Positions 1,229 through 11,503 of a stretch of DNA of 64,000 nt are shown here, one piece after another; the stretch's first letter is position 1, and every line of letters starts with the position of its first letter. The position numbers were made by a program, and so were the translations under genes. This stretch comes from a virus. The notes beneath the pieces were generated by a model that ran no database searches, was not told the DNA's origin, and saw only the letters and a list, made by a program, of their open reading frames with translations. The DNA lies in the IMG/VR virus record IMGVR_UViG_3300043446_002688; one strand, written 5' to 3'.

Positions 1229-1257
1229 TTGACTCTACAAATTTTTTGATATATAAT
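1229..1257 (+). promoter_or_regulatory. sigma70-type promoter
   Basis: TTGACT-17nt-TATAAT. Confidence 0.85.
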
Positions 1258-1265
1258 ACATACAT

Positions 1266-1339
1266 GCGGAATTAGTTTAGTGGCAAAACGCTATCCTTCC
1301 AAGTTAGAGTTATCAGTTCGATTCTGATATTCCGCTCCA
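1266..1339 (+). tRNA. tRNA-Gly(UCC)
   Basis: GCGGAAT/ATTCCGC stem, TCC anticodon, U73, CCA. Confidence 0.93.
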
Positions 1340-1347
1340 AGTTTTAT

Positions 1348-1412
1348 GCGGGAGTTTTTAACAATGTTGGGGTCCACCCAATATACAAGTGAGAATCTTG
1401 TTTCCCGCTCCA
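1348..1412 (+). ncRNA. D-arm-less tRNA-Gly-like RNA (65 nt)
   Basis: GCGGGAG/TTCCCGC acceptor, U73+CCA, ATGTTGG/CCAATAT stem with GGTCCAC loop (TCC central), ACAAG-TGAGAAT-CTTGT T-arm, 9-nt linker replacing the D-arm. Confidence 0.75.
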
Positions 1413-1417
1413 TTTGT

Positions 1418-1494
1418 AGCAGTGTAGAGAAGAAGCCATCTCACCAGGTTCATACCCTCGGAGGTCGTTGGTGCGAGTCCAACCACTGCAACCA
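1418..1494 (+). tRNA. tRNA-Met(CAU), initiator-like
   Basis: AGCAGTG/CACTGCA with 1:72 mismatch, CAT anticodon, TGCGAGT T-loop, CCA. Confidence 0.8.
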
Positions 1495-3923: not shown

Positions 3924-6458
3924 ATGGATTTTTATACTAATGTCCAAAACTTTGGCAATGGTATTCTTTACCGTGGTTTTATGGATGGTAAACGTGTCAA
4001 ACAACGAATTGACTATTCACCATCTTTATACTTACCAACAAAGAAACCTAGTCAATACAAAACTTTGGATGGCACACCGTTAGAACGCAAAAAGTTTGAC
4101 GATATCAACGAAGCAAAAGACTTCTTCAAAAAGTATGATGGTATTCCTGGTATGCCTAAGATTTACGGCAACACCAGATATGCGTATGCATTTATTGCAG
4201 ACCAACATCCAGATATGATTGAATGGGAGATGGAAAAAATCTCTATCGGCATTGTCGATATTGAGGTTGGTTCAGAAAATGGTTTCCCTGATCCATATCA
4301 AGCCAACGAACCAATTACAGCCATTGCAATTACCTATCTGAACGGTGCAACATATGTGTTTGGTTGTGGTGATTATGTTACTCAAGGTGATGAGATTTAT
4401 GTCAAGTGTAAAGATGAATATTCACTTTGCAAACAATTCTTGGAACTATGGATTCAAAAATGTCCCGATGTTATCACCGGCTGGAACACCAAGTTCTTTG
4501 ATATTCCCTATCTTGTAAATCGTTTTCGTAAAATTCTTGGTGAAGATTTGGTCAAGAAGTTGTCGCCATGGAATTATATTTCTGAACGCAAGACTGTAAT
4601 TAATGGTCGACAAATGATTGCGTATGGATTTGTTGGTGTCGAATCACTTGATTATATTGAACTCTACAAATGGTATGCGCCAGGTGGTAAGTCACAAGAA
4701 TCTTATCGTTTGGATAACATTGCACAAGTAGAACTTGGTGAAGGTAAGATTTCATACGATGAGTATGATAACCTACACCAACTGTATCGTTTGAACTATC
4801 AGAAATTTATTGAATACAACATCAAAGACGTTAAGTTGATTTTGAAGTTGGAAGATAAGTTGAAGTTGTTAGAACTGGCACTCACTTTGGCCTATGACAC
4901 CAAGTGTAACTATGAAGATGTGTTTGCACAGACCCGTATGTGGGATTCGATGACTTATTCCTATTTGTTCAACAAAGGCATTATTGTACCACCCCGTGAA
5001 GTGCAGGATAAAGATTCGGCATTTGAAGGTGCATATGTGAAAGAACCACAAGTTGGTGCTCACAAATGGGTTGCATCGTTTGACTTGAACAGTTTGTATC
5101 CTCACTTGATGATGCAATACAACATCAGTCCAGAAACATTGATTGAACCAGAAAATTACACACAAGAAATGCGTGATATTCTTTCACAGGGTGTAAGTGT
5201 TGATAAATTGTTGTCTAAGACCGTTGATTTATCAAATCTGGATGGTGTGACCATTACACCAAATGGTCAATTCTTCCGTACAGACATGCAAGGTTTCTTG
5301 CCTAAGATGATGGAAGAAATGTACGAAGACCGTAAGAAGTTTAAGAAGTTAATGCTTCAGGCAAAACAGGAGTATGAAAATGAAAAAGACGCAAGCAAAA
5401 AATACGACATTGAAAAACGAATCGCAAGATACGACAACCTACAACTCGCAAAGAAGGTATCACTTAATTCCGCCTACGGTGCTTTGGGAAGCCAGTATTT
5501 TAGGTTTTATGACCTACGCATGGCTCTGGGAGTCACTACAGCAGGCCAGCTCTCGATTCGTTGGATTGAAGGCAAAATAAATGAATACATGAACAAATTG
5601 GTTGGTACAAAAGGAGTTGATTATGTTATTGCGTCCGATACTGACTCAATCTATCTTAAGCTTGGTCCTCTTATGGACAAGTTTGTTCAAAACCAATCTG
5701 ATACTCCTCGGATCATCACCATCATGGATAAAATCTGCGAGGATAAACTTCAACCTTTTATTGATAAAGCTTACACTGAACTTGCTCAATACGTTAACGC
5801 TTATGCTCAAAAGATGCAAATGAAACGTGAAGGTTTGTCTGACAAAGGTGTATGGACTGCCAAGAAGCGTTATATTCTAAATGTGTATAACAACGAAGGT
5901 GTGCAATATGCCGAACCTAAGATTAAAGTCATGGGTTTGGAAATGATTAAGTCATCAACACCATCGGCCATCCGTGAAAAGATGTGGAAATCTGTTAAGT
6001 TGATGATGACTGGTACCGAATCTGATGTGCAAGACTTTATTGCCGAATTTAGAAAAGAATTTAAAACATTACCACCAGAAGAAATATCTTTTCCTCGTGG
6101 ACTGAATGGCTTAAATAATTATTCCGATTCGGTAACATTGTACAAAAAAGGCACACCAATCCATGTGCGTGGTGCCATCATGTATAACCACCATCTAAAA
6201 CTGATGGGTTTGGAAAAGAAATACCCAAAAATACAAGAAGGTGAAAAGATTAAATTCACCTATTTGAAACTACCAAATCATTTCAAAGAAGATGTGGTAT
6301 CTTTCCCGTCCAGAATTCCTAAAGAATTTGGGCTTGACGAGGTTATTGATTATGATGTACAATTCGATAAAGCGTTTCTGGAACCAATTAAGGTTATTCT
6401 AAACTGTATGGGTTGGAAAACAGAAAAAACTAATTCTTTGGAAGACTTTTTCGGATGA
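3924..6458 (+). CDS. 43: DNA polymerase, family B (gp43)
   Basis: DIE exonuclease motif, FDLNSLYP, KxxxNSxYG, YxDTDS-like ASDTDS, KKRY. Confidence 0.98.
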   Translation: MDFYTNVQNFGNGILYRGFMDGKRVKQRIDYSPSLYLPTKKPSQYKTLDGTPLERKKFDDINEAKDFFKKYDGIPGMPKIYGNTRYAYAFIADQHPDMIEWEMEKISIGIVDIEVGSENGFPDPYQANEPITAIAITYLNGATYVFGCGDYVTQGDEIYVKCKDEYSLCKQFLELWIQKCPDVITGWNTKFFDIPYLVNRFRKILGEDLVKKLSPWNYISERKTVINGRQMIAYGFVGVESLDYIELYKWYAPGGKSQESYRLDNIAQVELGEGKISYDEYDNLHQLYRLNYQKFIEYNIKDVKLILKLEDKLKLLELALTLAYDTKCNYEDVFAQTRMWDSMTYSYLFNKGIIVPPREVQDKDSAFEGAYVKEPQVGAHKWVASFDLNSLYPHLMMQYNISPETLIEPENYTQEMRDILSQGVSVDKLLSKTVDLSNLDGVTITPNGQFFRTDMQGFLPKMMEEMYEDRKKFKKLMLQAKQEYENEKDASKKYDIEKRIARYDNLQLAKKVSLNSAYGALGSQYFRFYDLRMALGVTTAGQLSIRWIEGKINEYMNKLVGTKGVDYVIASDTDSIYLKLGPLMDKFVQNQSDTPRIITIMDKICEDKLQPFIDKAYTELAQYVNAYAQKMQMKREGLSDKGVWTAKKRYILNVYNNEGVQYAEPKIKVMGLEMIKSSTPSAIREKMWKSVKLMMTGTESDVQDFIAEFRKEFKTLPPEEISFPRGLNGLNNYSDSVTLYKKGTPIHVRGAIMYNHHLKLMGLEKKYPKIQEGEKIKFTYLKLPNHFKEDVVSFPSRIPKEFGLDEVIDYDVQFDKAFLEPIKVILNCMGWKTEKTNSLEDFFG

Positions 6459-9049: not shown

Positions 9050-10397
9050 AGAATACCTACGCAAAGTCCTACCCTTTCTTAAAGGTGAATATTTCACGGA
9101 CAGAGTTGACCGCACTATCTTTACAGAGGTGTCCAAGTTCGTTGAGGAATACAATAGCCCGCCGACTATTGAAGCAATTGGATTGGCCATCAAAGAGAAA
9201 CGAAATCTCACAGATGAAGAAGTGGAACAGTGTGAATCTAATCTCAAAGAAATTGTTTCAGCTAAATCAGAGGAATCTAAACTTGACTGGCTCACTGATA
9301 AAACCGAAAAATTCTGCCAAGAAAAAGCAATATACAATGCGGTTCTTGGCTCAATTTCTATCCTTGACGGCAAAGACAAGACTAACGACAAAGGTGCAAT
9401 ACCAAAATTATTATCAGATGCGTTAGCCATATCTTTTGATAATTCTGTTGGTCACGACTATTTGGAGAATTCAGATGACCGATTCGACTTCTATCACAGA
9501 CATGAAGAAAGAATCCCATTCGACCTTGAGTTCTTTAATAAAATCACCAAAGGCGGACTTCCAGCTAAAACACTCAATATCGCCTTGGCTGGTACGGGTG
9601 TCGGCAAGTCTCTTTTTATGTGTCATGTTGCTGCTGGTTGTATGTCTCAAGGCAAAAATGTTTTGTATATCACAATGGAAATGTCAGAAGAAAGAATTGC
9701 CGAACGCATAGATGCAAACTTGTTGAATGTGACTATGGACGAACTAACAAATTTGTCCAAGGAATTATATGATAAACGAATTCAAAAACTCCGTGAAAAG
9801 ACTGTGGGAAAACTTATCATCAAAGAGTATCCAACTGCATCTGCCTCGGCTACGCACTTTAGGACTTTACTTAACGAACTTAACCTTAAAAAGTCTTTTG
9901 TACCTGATATTATTTTCATTGATTACCTTAATATTTGTTGTAGTTCTAGGATCAAAGCAGGAGCCAACATTAATAGTTATACCTATGTCAAAGCAATCGC
10001 AGAGGAATTGCGAGGTCTTGCCGTTGAGTTCGGAGTACCAGTCGTTTCTGCTACACAAACTACACGAAGCGGATATAGTTCATCCGATCCAGGGTTGGAG
10101 GACACAAGTGAATCTTTTGGTTTGCCAGCTACCGCAGACTTGATGTTTGCTCTTATTTCATCTGAAGAACTAGAAGAAATGGGACAGATTATGGTCAAAC
10201 AGTTGAAGAATCGTTATAATGATCCAGGTTATTACAAACGATTCACACTAGGTATTGACAGAGCAAAGATGAGATTGTATGATATTGAACAATCTGGTCA
10301 AGATGGTTTGACTGATGCTGGTCAGGACAAGCCATTAAATACATTTGGTAACAGAGAAAAACCACAAAAGAAATCGTTTGATGGATTTAAAGTATGA
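9006..10397 (+). CDS. 41: Replicative helicase gp41 (DnaB-like)
   Basis: AGTGVGKS, IFIDYLNI, SATQTTR, QLKNRY. Confidence 0.97.
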   Translation: MKLEQTILKNLIYNEEYLRKVLPFLKGEYFTDRVDRTIFTEVSKFVEEYNSPPTIEAIGLAIKEKRNLTDEEVEQCESNLKEIVSAKSEESKLDWLTDKTEKFCQEKAIYNAVLGSISILDGKDKTNDKGAIPKLLSDALAISFDNSVGHDYLENSDDRFDFYHRHEERIPFDLEFFNKITKGGLPAKTLNIALAGTGVGKSLFMCHVAAGCMSQGKNVLYITMEMSEERIAERIDANLLNVTMDELTNLSKELYDKRIQKLREKTVGKLIIKEYPTASASATHFRTLLNELNLKKSFVPDIIFIDYLNICCSSRIKAGANINSYTYVKAIAEELRGLAVEFGVPVVSATQTTRSGYSSSDPGLEDTSESFGLPATADLMFALISSEELEEMGQIMVKQLKNRYNDPGYYKRFTLGIDRAKMRLYDIEQSGQDGLTDAGQDKPLNTFGNREKPQKKSFDGFKV

Positions 10398-11503
10398 AAT
10401 TGAGTTTTGATGAAGCCTTGCATTGTGCCAAGGCATTTGAAGATTATTTTAGTAACTTTGACCGTATTGATGAATACATGCGTGACCAGAAGTTGAATGA
10501 CTTGGAAAATATGCCAACTTCAATTCCTGGTTTTGGACCAGAAGAAGATTTGTTTCAAGATTTCACCATGCATCCGAAAGATATGAATTTTGAAGTGTGT
10601 GAAATACCCACATCAACATGGGAAACACTACTCAATATTACATCATCACATATCAATATTGCACCTGTTGGTCGTAATGTTAAATTAGCAGTAAAAGAAA
10701 CAAACACAGGAAAATTCGTTGGTTTCATTCGCCTTGGTTCACCAGTGATTAATTGTAAACCTAGAAATGATATGTTAGGACAGGTCTTCACACAACAACC
10801 TGAGTGGGGTAAACGATTCAATAACTCTGCAATGATGGGTTTTGTTATTGTTCCTGCACAACCATTCGGTTACAATTACCTTGGTGGTAAACTGTTGGCT
10901 GCAATCTGTACTTCACATGAAGTCCGTGAGATTGTGAACAAGAAGTATGATATGAATCTGTGTTTGTTTGAAACTACCAGTTTATACGGAAGTTCTAAGA
11001 CAGTATCTCAGTATGATGGTATGAAACCATTTATTAGATACAAGGGCTTGACAGACTCAGACTTTTTGCCTATGATGCACGGTAAACCTTATACAGAACT
11101 GCGTGATTATGTTGAAAAGATTACAGGTCCATTGGTTGATAAAGATGCCTCTAGTAAGAAACTCAAAATTTCCATGAAAATCATTTCTTTGACCAAAGCA
11201 GCACTCAAAGGCACCAAAGAAGGTGAAGCATTCAATAAGACTATTGAAAAGGCCAAAGGTCTAACTGAACAGAAACGGTATTACATCAGTGACTATGGGT
11301 TTAAGAATATGGTCGATTATGTGAACTGTAAGACTGATGTTCTTATTCCTGGTGAAAACTATGAAAAACACAAACTGGCAAACCTCGTTGAATGGTGGAG
11401 AAACAAGGCCGTCAATCGGTATGCAACACTTCACAATGAAGGTCGTTTGAGAACTGAACTTGAGATTTGGACTTCTGGAAAAGAGATTCAAATTATCAGA
11501 TAA
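10394..11503 (+). CDS. DUF4338/Mom-like (GNAT-related) protein
   Basis: VPAQPFGYNYLGGKLLAA...FETTSLYG...SQYDG motifs; family recalled from memory, not searched. Confidence 0.55.
   Translation: MKLSFDEALHCAKAFEDYFSNFDRIDEYMRDQKLNDLENMPTSIPGFGPEEDLFQDFTMHPKDMNFEVCEIPTSTWETLLNITSSHINIAPVGRNVKLAVKETNTGKFVGFIRLGSPVINCKPRNDMLGQVFTQQPEWGKRFNNSAMMGFVIVPAQPFGYNYLGGKLLAAICTSHEVREIVNKKYDMNLCLFETTSLYGSSKTVSQYDGMKPFIRYKGLTDSDFLPMMHGKPYTELRDYVEKITGPLVDKDASSKKLKISMKIISLTKAALKGTKEGEAFNKTIEKAKGLTEQKRYYISDYGFKNMVDYVNCKTDVLIPGENYEKHKLANLVEWWRNKAVNRYATLHNEGRLRTELEIWTSGKEIQIIR

Follow-up and report, generated by a model that had tools for sequence, protein, structure and literature searches.

Dedicated non-ribosomal tRNA donors are known from cell-wall synthesis, and the tRNA-dependent DNA modification carried out by Mom was established only in 2026. 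In Staphylococcus aureus, non-proteinogenic tRNAGly isoacceptors act as glycine donors for FemXAB pentaglycine synthesis (PMC7826273, PMC4574755). Mom of phage Mu, a GNAT, moves glycine from Gly-tRNAGly to the N6 of adenine in double-stranded DNA, and the adduct rearranges to N6-carbamoylmethyl-adenine; the enzyme accepts all three E. coli tRNAGly isoacceptors and rejects Gly-tRNAAla, and Silva et al. inferred that it recognises the acceptor end (Nat Commun 2026; PMC13219725). The Mom papers make no mention of a phage-encoded carrier RNA, and a literature search for D-armless or tRNA-like RNAs in phages found no published description. The present analysis concerns such an RNA gene, a 65-nucleotide (nt) D-armless relative of tRNA-Gly (hereafter the mini-tRNA), found in a 64,000-nt stretch of DNA (the window) from IMGVR_UViG_3300043446_002688, a complete 176,978-bp IMG/VR virus record (genome label G000). 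The pattern of its kept and lost sequence features, together with its gene linkage, suggests that the mini-tRNA is probably a private, non-decoding glycyl carrier for Mom-type GNATs.

The mini-tRNA fills the 78-nt gap between tRNA-Gly(UCC) and tRNA-Met in an array of 12 tRNA genes called by ARAGORN (197 to 1494; Table 1). Its spacers, 8 nt from tRNA-Gly(UCC) and 5 nt to tRNA-Met, match the other inter-tRNA spacers, and the 177-kb genome holds one copy. Compared with a canonical tRNA, the 7-bp acceptor stem, the 5-bp T-stem with its 7-nt loop and the discriminator plus CCA are kept, whereas the D-arm with G18G19 and the 7-nt anticodon loop with U33 are gone. The acceptor stem is formed by G1-C72, C2-G71, G3-C70, G4-C69, G5-C68, A6-U67 and G7-U66 (1348-1354 with 1402-1408), and the T-stem by A49-U65, C50-G64, A51-U63, A52-U62 and G53-C61. 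Folding for minimum free energy without constraints gives the same three helices (-23.4 kcal/mol, z = -3.55), a stability matched by 1 of 200 shuffles. On these points the preliminary description of the element, made from the letters alone, proves exact (Gly acceptor identity, U73, CCA, absence of a D-arm, T-arm and its loop), as does its placement directly behind a normal tRNA-Gly(UCC). It had also expected standard tRNA finders to miss the element: ARAGORN calls no tRNA at 1348-1412, and the 4,227 Rfam models, RF00005 included, give no match there even at E<=10.

Table 1. Coordinates of the mini-tRNA, its parts, its neighbours in the array and the candidate partner genes
Feature	Coordinates	Strand	Evidence and remarks
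65-nt D-armless mini-tRNA-Gly	1348..1412	+	Sequence, fold, covariance model R1 61.3 bits
Acceptor stem, 5' strand GCGGGAG	1348..1354	+	Pairs 1-3 carry Gly identity
9-nt connector in the place of the D-arm, TTTTTAACA (RNA UUUUUAACA)	1355..1363	+	Semi-conserved UAAC/UAGAAC motif
8-bp 'anticodon' stem and pentaloop GUCCA (N33 N34 C35 C36 N37)	1364..1384	+	Strands AUGUUGGG / CCCAAUAU; stem 1364-1371/1377-1384 encloses the 5-nt loop GTCCA, 1372-1376
T-arm, 5-bp stem ACAAG/CTTGT, loop UGAGAAU	1385..1401	+	U54, A58 and G53-C61 kept; U55-C56 replaced
Acceptor 3' strand UUCCCGC, U73, encoded CCA	1402..1412	+	Sequence and family alignment; discriminator U73 at 1409, CCA at 1410-1412
Sigma-70-like promoter TTGACT-17-TATAAT	1229..1257	+	11/12 match; ahead of tRNA-Gly(UCC), mini-tRNA, tRNA-Met and GroES
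Canonical tRNA-Gly(UCC)	1266..1339	+	ARAGORN; Rfam RF00005 65.8 bits
tRNA-Met(CAU), next in array	1418..1494	+	ARAGORN; RF00005 40.2 bits
DUF4338/DruA-family GNAT 'A', 369 amino acids, candidate RNA user	10394..11503	+	Pfam PF14236
DUF4338 paralogue 'B', ~423 amino acids	G000:C1:133372-134643 (outside the window)		PF14236 76.6 bits, E=2.4e-21

Conservation of the element was assessed across T4-like relatives. The first relatives, fetched through the neighbouring GroES protein with no constraint placed on the RNA, carry a homologous element between tRNA-Gly(UCC) and GroES at ~35 loci, its stems differing widely in sequence. In IMG/VR, a pattern scan yields at least 120 matching stretches, and the two sources together give at least 70 distinct D-armless sequences. 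With covariance model R1, family members reach 41-79 bits, and canonical tRNA-Gly genes stay at or below 39.5 bits. Among 73 distinct T4-like members, standard pairs occupy 95.2% of cells, against 38-48% with partners slid by 1-3 columns; the covariation score is 0.761 against ~0.09, and 15 of 20 pairs are changed on both sides against 9-11 of 20. The observed pairing was reached in 0 of 500 shuffles. All 8 pairs of the 'anticodon' stem covary in these members, as do 4 of the 5 T-stem pairs, G53-C61 being invariant. The compensatory changes for which the preliminary description had advised a covariance-model search of related phages are thus found in every helix of many homologues, and the family does not show the decay without covariation expected of a pseudo-tRNA. 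A decaying duplicate of tRNA-Gly could be suspected from the adjacent likely parent gene and from the failure of tRNA finders to see the element, but it is contradicted by the extensive compensatory changes seen in more than 90 distinct sequences from two phage groups, and its probability is negligible. The mini-tRNA is a conserved structured RNA, not a pseudogene.

Within this family, variation is unevenly distributed. Pairs G1-C72, C2-G71, G3-C70, G4-C69 and G53-C61 never vary among the 73 members, and U73, CCA and the loop C35-C36 are also fixed, while variation is free in acceptor pairs 5-7, in the T-stem and at position 34 (U/A/G/C). Alignments A4 and A6 were fitted to the model, and many A4 members come from a pattern fixing GCGG, TGNNAATC and CCGCTCCA; because that pattern fixed some positions, claims of invariance are drawn from the protein-fetched sets, in which pairs 1-3 are almost invariant and the exception at pair 4 is A4-U69. 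The 32:38 closing pair is UA in 27, GC in 18, AU in 14, CG in 7 and UG in 1 member, and unpaired in 0. The G at position 33 of the preliminary description stands in a 7-nt frame, but since 32:38 forms a true Watson-Crick or G-U pair in the whole family, the loop has 5 nt, a pentaloop. Its types (N33-N34-C-C-N37) are GUCCA (41), UACCC (10), UGCCC (7), UCCCC (5) and others, and a 63-nt subtype has a loop of 4 nt. The connector measures 9-15 nt in relatives or is replaced by a vestigial 3-4-bp hairpin. Pairs A49-U65 and A51-U63, previously put forward as a sign of weak EF-Tu binding, are present in the window copy but not conserved (49:65 is CG33/GC20/UA14/AU1, 51:63 is UA33/AU20/CG19); these positions covary freely, so no conserved EF-Tu signature can be claimed. 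Alignment A4 also shows an association between T-loop and connector: C56 accompanies a G-containing connector UAG in 43 of 45 members, and A/G56 occurs without UAG in 27 of 28. This could reflect a retained G19:C56-like elbow pair, an association confounded with subfamily.

The bacterial glycine identity set consists of U73, G1-C72, C2-G71, C35 and C36, and the GNAT toxin TacT reads U73 plus G71 (PMC9976931). Together with G3-C70, this set is complete in the window copy and fixed or almost fixed in the family, the protein-sampled sets included. The D-arm, the 7-nt loop, U55-C56 and, in most members, U33 are lost. At the level of sequence, the conserved features point to glycyl-tRNA synthetase (GlyRS) and the lost ones away from the ribosome. 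A genuine decoding tRNA-Gly of unusual shape, comparable to the D-armless mitochondrial tRNAs, would agree with a loop centre that is always NCC, as in glycine anticodons, and with tandem copies that often differ at N34 (e.g. GUCCA beside UCCCC). It is nevertheless very improbable: 32:38 is closed in every member, the loops are of 4-5 nt on an extended 8-bp stem, position 33 is G, not U, in most members, an ordinary tRNA-Gly(UCC) gene lies next door, and mitochondrial D-armless tRNAs depend on specialised factors (PMC7609411). Those tRNAs (nematode and mite mt-tRNASer, and others; PMC7609411, PMC6158502) share with the mini-tRNA the short connector, the kept acceptor and T-arm and a length of about 60-70 nt. 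However, they retain a 7-nt anticodon loop and decode with adapted factors, whereas the mini-tRNA has a 4-5-nt loop and an 8-bp stem and occurs in bacteriophages.

Less reduced tRNA-Gly variants occur at other loci. At L065:11673-11747, L075:8703-8777 and ~20 other loci, a 75-nt tRNA-Gly(GCC) with a normal 7-nt anticodon loop has the T-loop UGCGAAU and a D-loop, AGUAGUA, without GG; its D-loop/3' D-stem AGUAGAGC resembles the connector UAGUAGAAC of the D-armless RNAs. These genes may be evolutionary intermediates or staphylococcal-style non-proteinogenic tRNAGly. Five further variants of 73-74 nt (L111:1253-1326, L163:3515-3588, L177:5573-5646, L131:435-507 and L140:5681-5753) keep the D-arm, have an anticodon arm predicted to close on a 3-nt CC-containing loop, and lie 636-1051 nt from a DUF4338-A orthologue.

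The staphylococcal isoacceptors offer the nearest cellular parallel. In both cases the usual D-loop/T-loop elbow signature is lost, and the mini-tRNA, like them, would be glycylated by the normal GlyRS and reserved for a non-ribosomal transferase with a GNAT-like fold. Unlike the mini-tRNA, the S. aureus RNAs are cellular, full cloverleaves whose 7-nt anticodon loop is still able to decode; the mini-tRNA is virus-encoded, has no D-arm and a closed pentaloop, and is linked to Mom or DUF4338 genes, with no Fem gene in its genome. Acceptor/T-arm mimicry read by tRNA enzymes is also familiar from the 3' tRNA-like structures of plant viruses and from mascRNA, some of which are aminoacylated without decoding. 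Those, however, act in cis within RNA genomes or are released as by-products from long transcripts, whereas the mini-tRNA is a stand-alone gene in the tRNA array of a DNA phage, tied to a GNAT transferase gene.

The genome encodes two proteins of the DUF4338/DruA family (Table 1), which a published domain analysis classes as GNAT (PMC10853773) and which PADLOC DruA models also match. Paralogue A scores 31.5 bits against PF14236 (gathering cut-off 27; E=1.3e-7). It belongs to the replication module, its start overlapping the helicase stop, a setting it also has in cyanophages and in pelagiphage HTVC008M, and this placement fits a DNA-directed role. Both paralogues are present in 9 of 10 large RNA-bearing contigs among the matches listed. 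Also among the matches listed, 18 pattern-found loci have the RNA, single or in tandem, 28-73 nt downstream of B on the same strand, with no tRNA gene present. A protein-based sample started from 80 relatives of one RNA-adjacent B and used a generic finder of downstream mini-tRNAs whose sole sequence requirement was NCCA. A mini-tRNA follows B at 51 of the 67 loci with enough downstream DNA (one copy at 40, two at 11). Nearly all copies so sampled read GCGG...CCGC-U-CCA and have the CC in a small loop. One copy with A4-U69 and two GGGG variants, almost identical to each other, depart from this, and 2-3 scanner matches are spurious. A B-adjacent copy often has its nearest counterpart in a tRNA cluster (L071 with L159, 97%; L144 with L066, 91%), and the gene has therefore moved between both sites more than once. 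The co-occurrence of the RNA with DUF4338 genes that the preliminary description had proposed to examine is borne out by these contigs and by the adjacency in other lineages. The specific partner it had put forward, the gene at 10394, belongs to the linked family, but the gene adjoining the RNA in those lineages is paralogue B, which lies outside the window.

These loci show several further features. Tandem mini-tRNA pairs (L078:287-430, L114:4377-4516, L133:12153-12292, L176:405-546 and others) mostly differ at N34, as in GUCCA beside UCCCC, and there are two DUF4338 paralogues per genome. A peptide deformylase gene lies immediately upstream of DUF4338-B (L114:2163-2759; L317:885-1439, phage Mosig; G000:C1:134618-135343), and downstream at these loci are a ~770-amino-acid protein without a Pfam match and a CbbQ/NorQ-type AAA ATPase. 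The counterpart of the ~770-amino-acid protein, downstream of DUF4338-B in pelagiphage records, is annotated 'peptidase'. An intergenic motif, GUAGAACA..AGAAC..GCUGUGCGA..UGACGCA, is shared by HTVC008M (L316:2644-2779, after B) and Mosig EXVC030M (L317:3167-3301, after the MazG gene following B). It recalls the connector and T-loop of the mini-tRNA, the acceptor stem being absent, and may be a relic or a different RNA.

A second and independent set of loci ties the same kind of RNA to genuine Mom. A pattern scan of 185,579 prokaryote species gave 33 matches, about the number expected by chance on a rough estimate from pattern specificity and database size. The sole convincing one, in Sphingomonas sp. 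SRS2, is identical to the IMG/VR provirus L105 and starts ~10 nt after the end of a Mom domain (PF25680, E=1.4e-63). Of 80 Mom relatives then fetched, 23 high-GC loci carry a 69-70-nt version of the RNA 0-560 nt downstream, always on the same strand. This subfamily retains a mini D-hairpin of 4 bp, and an NNCCN pentaloop caps its stem of 6 bp within the frame GCGG...CCGC-U-CCA; in 20 Mom-linked members, 95.2% of cells are paired against 37-49% when slid, and 12 of 22 pairs are changed on both sides. A tRNA-Gly mimic that has the acceptor end and the charging determinants and lies directly behind mom is what a dedicated co-substrate is expected to look like. The glycine chemistry of Mom, on which the preliminary description had based its speculative partner, is sound in that Mom uses Gly-tRNAGly (PMC13219725).

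Two further observations concern the Mom loci and their outliers. In SRS2 (L307:3761-4654) the mom frame runs through the mini-tRNA gene, which begins at nt 4571, and the Mom domain ends at residue 267 of 297; elsewhere the RNA lies up to 490 nt further downstream. Two Bacillota/Limnochordia metagenome-assembled genomes (L287:4116-4185 and L298:1520-1589) hold a borderline 70-nt tRNA-Gly-like element (R1 38-40 bits) with a 3-bp D-like hairpin, pentaloops CCCAA and ACCAA, and the CC shifted by one position; no Mom gene was found in either.

Whether DUF4338 resembles Mom was addressed by structure and by sequence. The AlphaFold2 model of paralogue A (pLDDT 90.9) gives weak Foldseek matches, mostly to GNAT acetyltransferases, and the top VIA-align match is Mu Mom (8bv8_A; Z 10.2, root-mean-square deviation 4.1 Å over 185 residues, the longest alignment). 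Sequence homology between DUF4338 and Mom is rejected, as hmmscan of A returns PF14236 alone and profile comparison gives no support. The label 'DUF4338/Mom-like GNAT' used in the preliminary description agrees with the GNAT fold and with a structural match to Mom that is tied with generic GNATs, but not with sequence. The complete genome contains no match to Mom (PF25680) and, in a search whose controls were positive, none to FemAB (PF02388), so the DUF4338 pair is the only candidate partner found there. The likeness to the Mu system (PF25680, PDB 8BV8) lies in a GNAT that would take glycine from a tRNAGly-type acceptor end, and high-GC Mu-like proviruses have a genuine mom followed by the same kind of mini-tRNA. 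Mu itself differs in having no such RNA and using host isoacceptors, whereas the genome studied here has DUF4338 GNATs and no Mom-family gene.

These observations suggest the following course for a glycyl carrier. The mini-tRNA would derive from tRNA-Gly, its source probably being the neighbouring tRNA-Gly(UCC), and would be made from the tRNA-cluster transcript. Its 5' end would be cut by RNase P, since an acceptor/T-arm helix is a sufficient substrate for that enzyme, and its 3' end would be the encoded CCA. Host GlyRS is predicted to charge it with glycine, because G1-C72, C2-G71, G3-C70, U73, C35 and C36 are all kept, and decoding is not expected, because the D-arm is gone, the loop is closed to a pentaloop and U33 is usually missing. 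The glycyl-RNA would then act as a private aminoacyl donor for the DUF4338/DruA-family GNAT transferases, in parallel with Gly-tRNAGly and Mu Mom. The likeliest target would be DNA, at least for paralogue A in the replication module. With a carrier of its own, the modification reaction would be kept apart from the Gly-tRNA pool used in translation.

The same evidence bears on three other functions. As a decoy or sponge, the RNA would mimic (Gly-)tRNAGly, absorb a host defence factor that reads the acceptor end or the anticodon of tRNAGly, such as a TacT/AtaT2-type GNAT toxin that acetylates Gly-tRNAGly, or a tRNAGly-specific nuclease, and so shield the translational pool. The non-decoding shape and the working tRNA-Gly(UCC) alongside would suit this role, and U73, G71, CCA, C35 and C36 are also what such factors read (U73 plus G71 for TacT; PMC9976931). 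The role nonetheless leaves the repeated placement directly behind Mom and DUF4338 genes in unrelated phage groups unexplained, a decoy acting by stoichiometry offers little against a toxin that acts catalytically, and no tRNAGly-targeting defence is known for the hosts of these phages. Nothing specifically favours this alternative, which the preliminary description had raised; it is kept here as an unlikely explanation.

The RNA could instead regulate the GNAT by binding the active site of Mom/DUF4338, as a competitive inhibitor, an antitoxin-like brake or a timing device, or have its glycyl end modified as a substrate. Mom expression is described as harmful to cells. The gene linkage is the same as for a donor, and GNATs acting on aminoacyl-tRNA exist in TacT and AtaT (PMC13219725). 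An inhibitor, however, would have no use for the anticodon-loop CC, a GlyRS identity element well away from the acceptor end, the part read by GNATs. That all the charging determinants are retained argues that charging matters. A regulatory or substrate role is accordingly given a small probability.

A processing or stability signal, finally, would make the RNA a tRNA-shaped RNase P/3'-end module that punctuates the transcript or shields the 3' end of the mom or DUF4338-B mRNA, or the 5' end of the GroES mRNA, without a role for glycine. The acceptor/T-arm helix would suffice for RNase P. In many relatives GroES follows the RNA at 15-31 nt, and elsewhere the RNA stands at the 3' end of GNAT genes. 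Such a module has no need for C35-C36, C2-G71, G3-C70 and U73, all fixed while the rest drifts, and the GroES link is broken in the window, where tRNA-Met intervenes, and at many other loci. The chance that this is the whole explanation is distinctly low.

Covariation and the DUF4338/Mom linkage together support the non-ribosomal glycyl donor first proposed in the preliminary description, with charging and transfer as its predicted steps. A number of results weigh against it. Cultured DUF4338-A phages (S-SCSM2R, HTVC008M, DSL-LC02, S-SSM7 and Sf-FS3) give R1 matches to ordinary tRNA-Gly only, a filter-free R1 search after DUF4338-B in HTVC008M and Mosig returns nothing, and the RNA is found downstream of B in 0 of 80 close relatives of the B encoded by the genome itself, so the linkage is lineage-specific. 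In the clade of the window, the RNA sits within the tRNA cluster, at a distance of 9-12 kb from each of the two GNAT genes. Mu and more than 50 low-GC Mom loci do without the RNA. The Z score of 10.2 for Mom is tied within 1 Z with SpeG-type GNATs (~145 residues), and hhalign of DUF4338 yields a probability of 0.2% with Mu Mom and of 0.7% with a Mom profile of 19 sequences; because of this tie and the missing sequence similarity, the term 'Mom-like' for DUF4338 rests on fold plus context. The pentaloop might impair the reading of C35 and C36 by GlyRS, and part of the apparent invariance in alignment A4 stems from the search pattern. Obligate co-occurrence of DUF4338 and the RNA is ruled out by the five cultured DUF4338-A phages, and since cultured DUF4338 phages and Mu do without it, the RNA is an optional accessory, not a requirement. 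A blastn search with the element and two variants against 50,697 phage records returned no cultured relative.

A broader proposal, advanced tentatively and with some doubt, is that DUF4338/DruA constitutes a second, sequence-unrelated family of aminoacyl-tRNA-dependent nucleic-acid-modifying GNATs, and that phages have repeatedly evolved or exchanged a minimal private glycyl carrier for Mom-type enzymes. In that case the DruA protein of the Druantia defence system would likewise depend on tRNA for its transferase reaction and might mark DNA, and the 63-70-nt RNA, as a cofactor dedicated to a task outside translation, would rank as the smallest natural substrate of GlyRS. The narrower reading, a virus-encoded tRNA-Gly that could be charged but not decode and is tied to Mom and DUF4338 GNATs, would itself offer a first functional lead on DUF4338/DruA, a widespread family with the Druantia component and a conserved pelagiphage/cyanophage gene among its members. 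It would also provide a compact natural GlyRS substrate for work on identity rules and for the engineering of orthogonal aminoacyl carriers, and would show that phages can keep a DNA-modification pathway separate from translation through a private cofactor RNA. With at least 120 pattern matches in IMG/VR, the mini-tRNAs are common among phages, and this class of RNA genes escapes both the standard tRNA finders and Rfam.

The genome belongs to an uncultured T4-like phage, with a family-B DNA polymerase, UvsX, a gp41-like helicase and a GroES homologue; the polymerase is ~51% identical to those of T4-like cyanophages. The nearest cultured relatives carrying DUF4338-B are Pelagibacter myophages. 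The promoter listed in Table 1 is a consensus match alone, and the count of such sites in the region is not above that in shuffles. Elsewhere in the array, the 169-nt spacer between tRNA-Thr(GGU) and tRNA-Leu(UAG) (586-754) forms one long closed stem that begins at the CCA of the preceding tRNA (-46.4 kcal/mol, z = -3.57, 0 of 200 shuffles).

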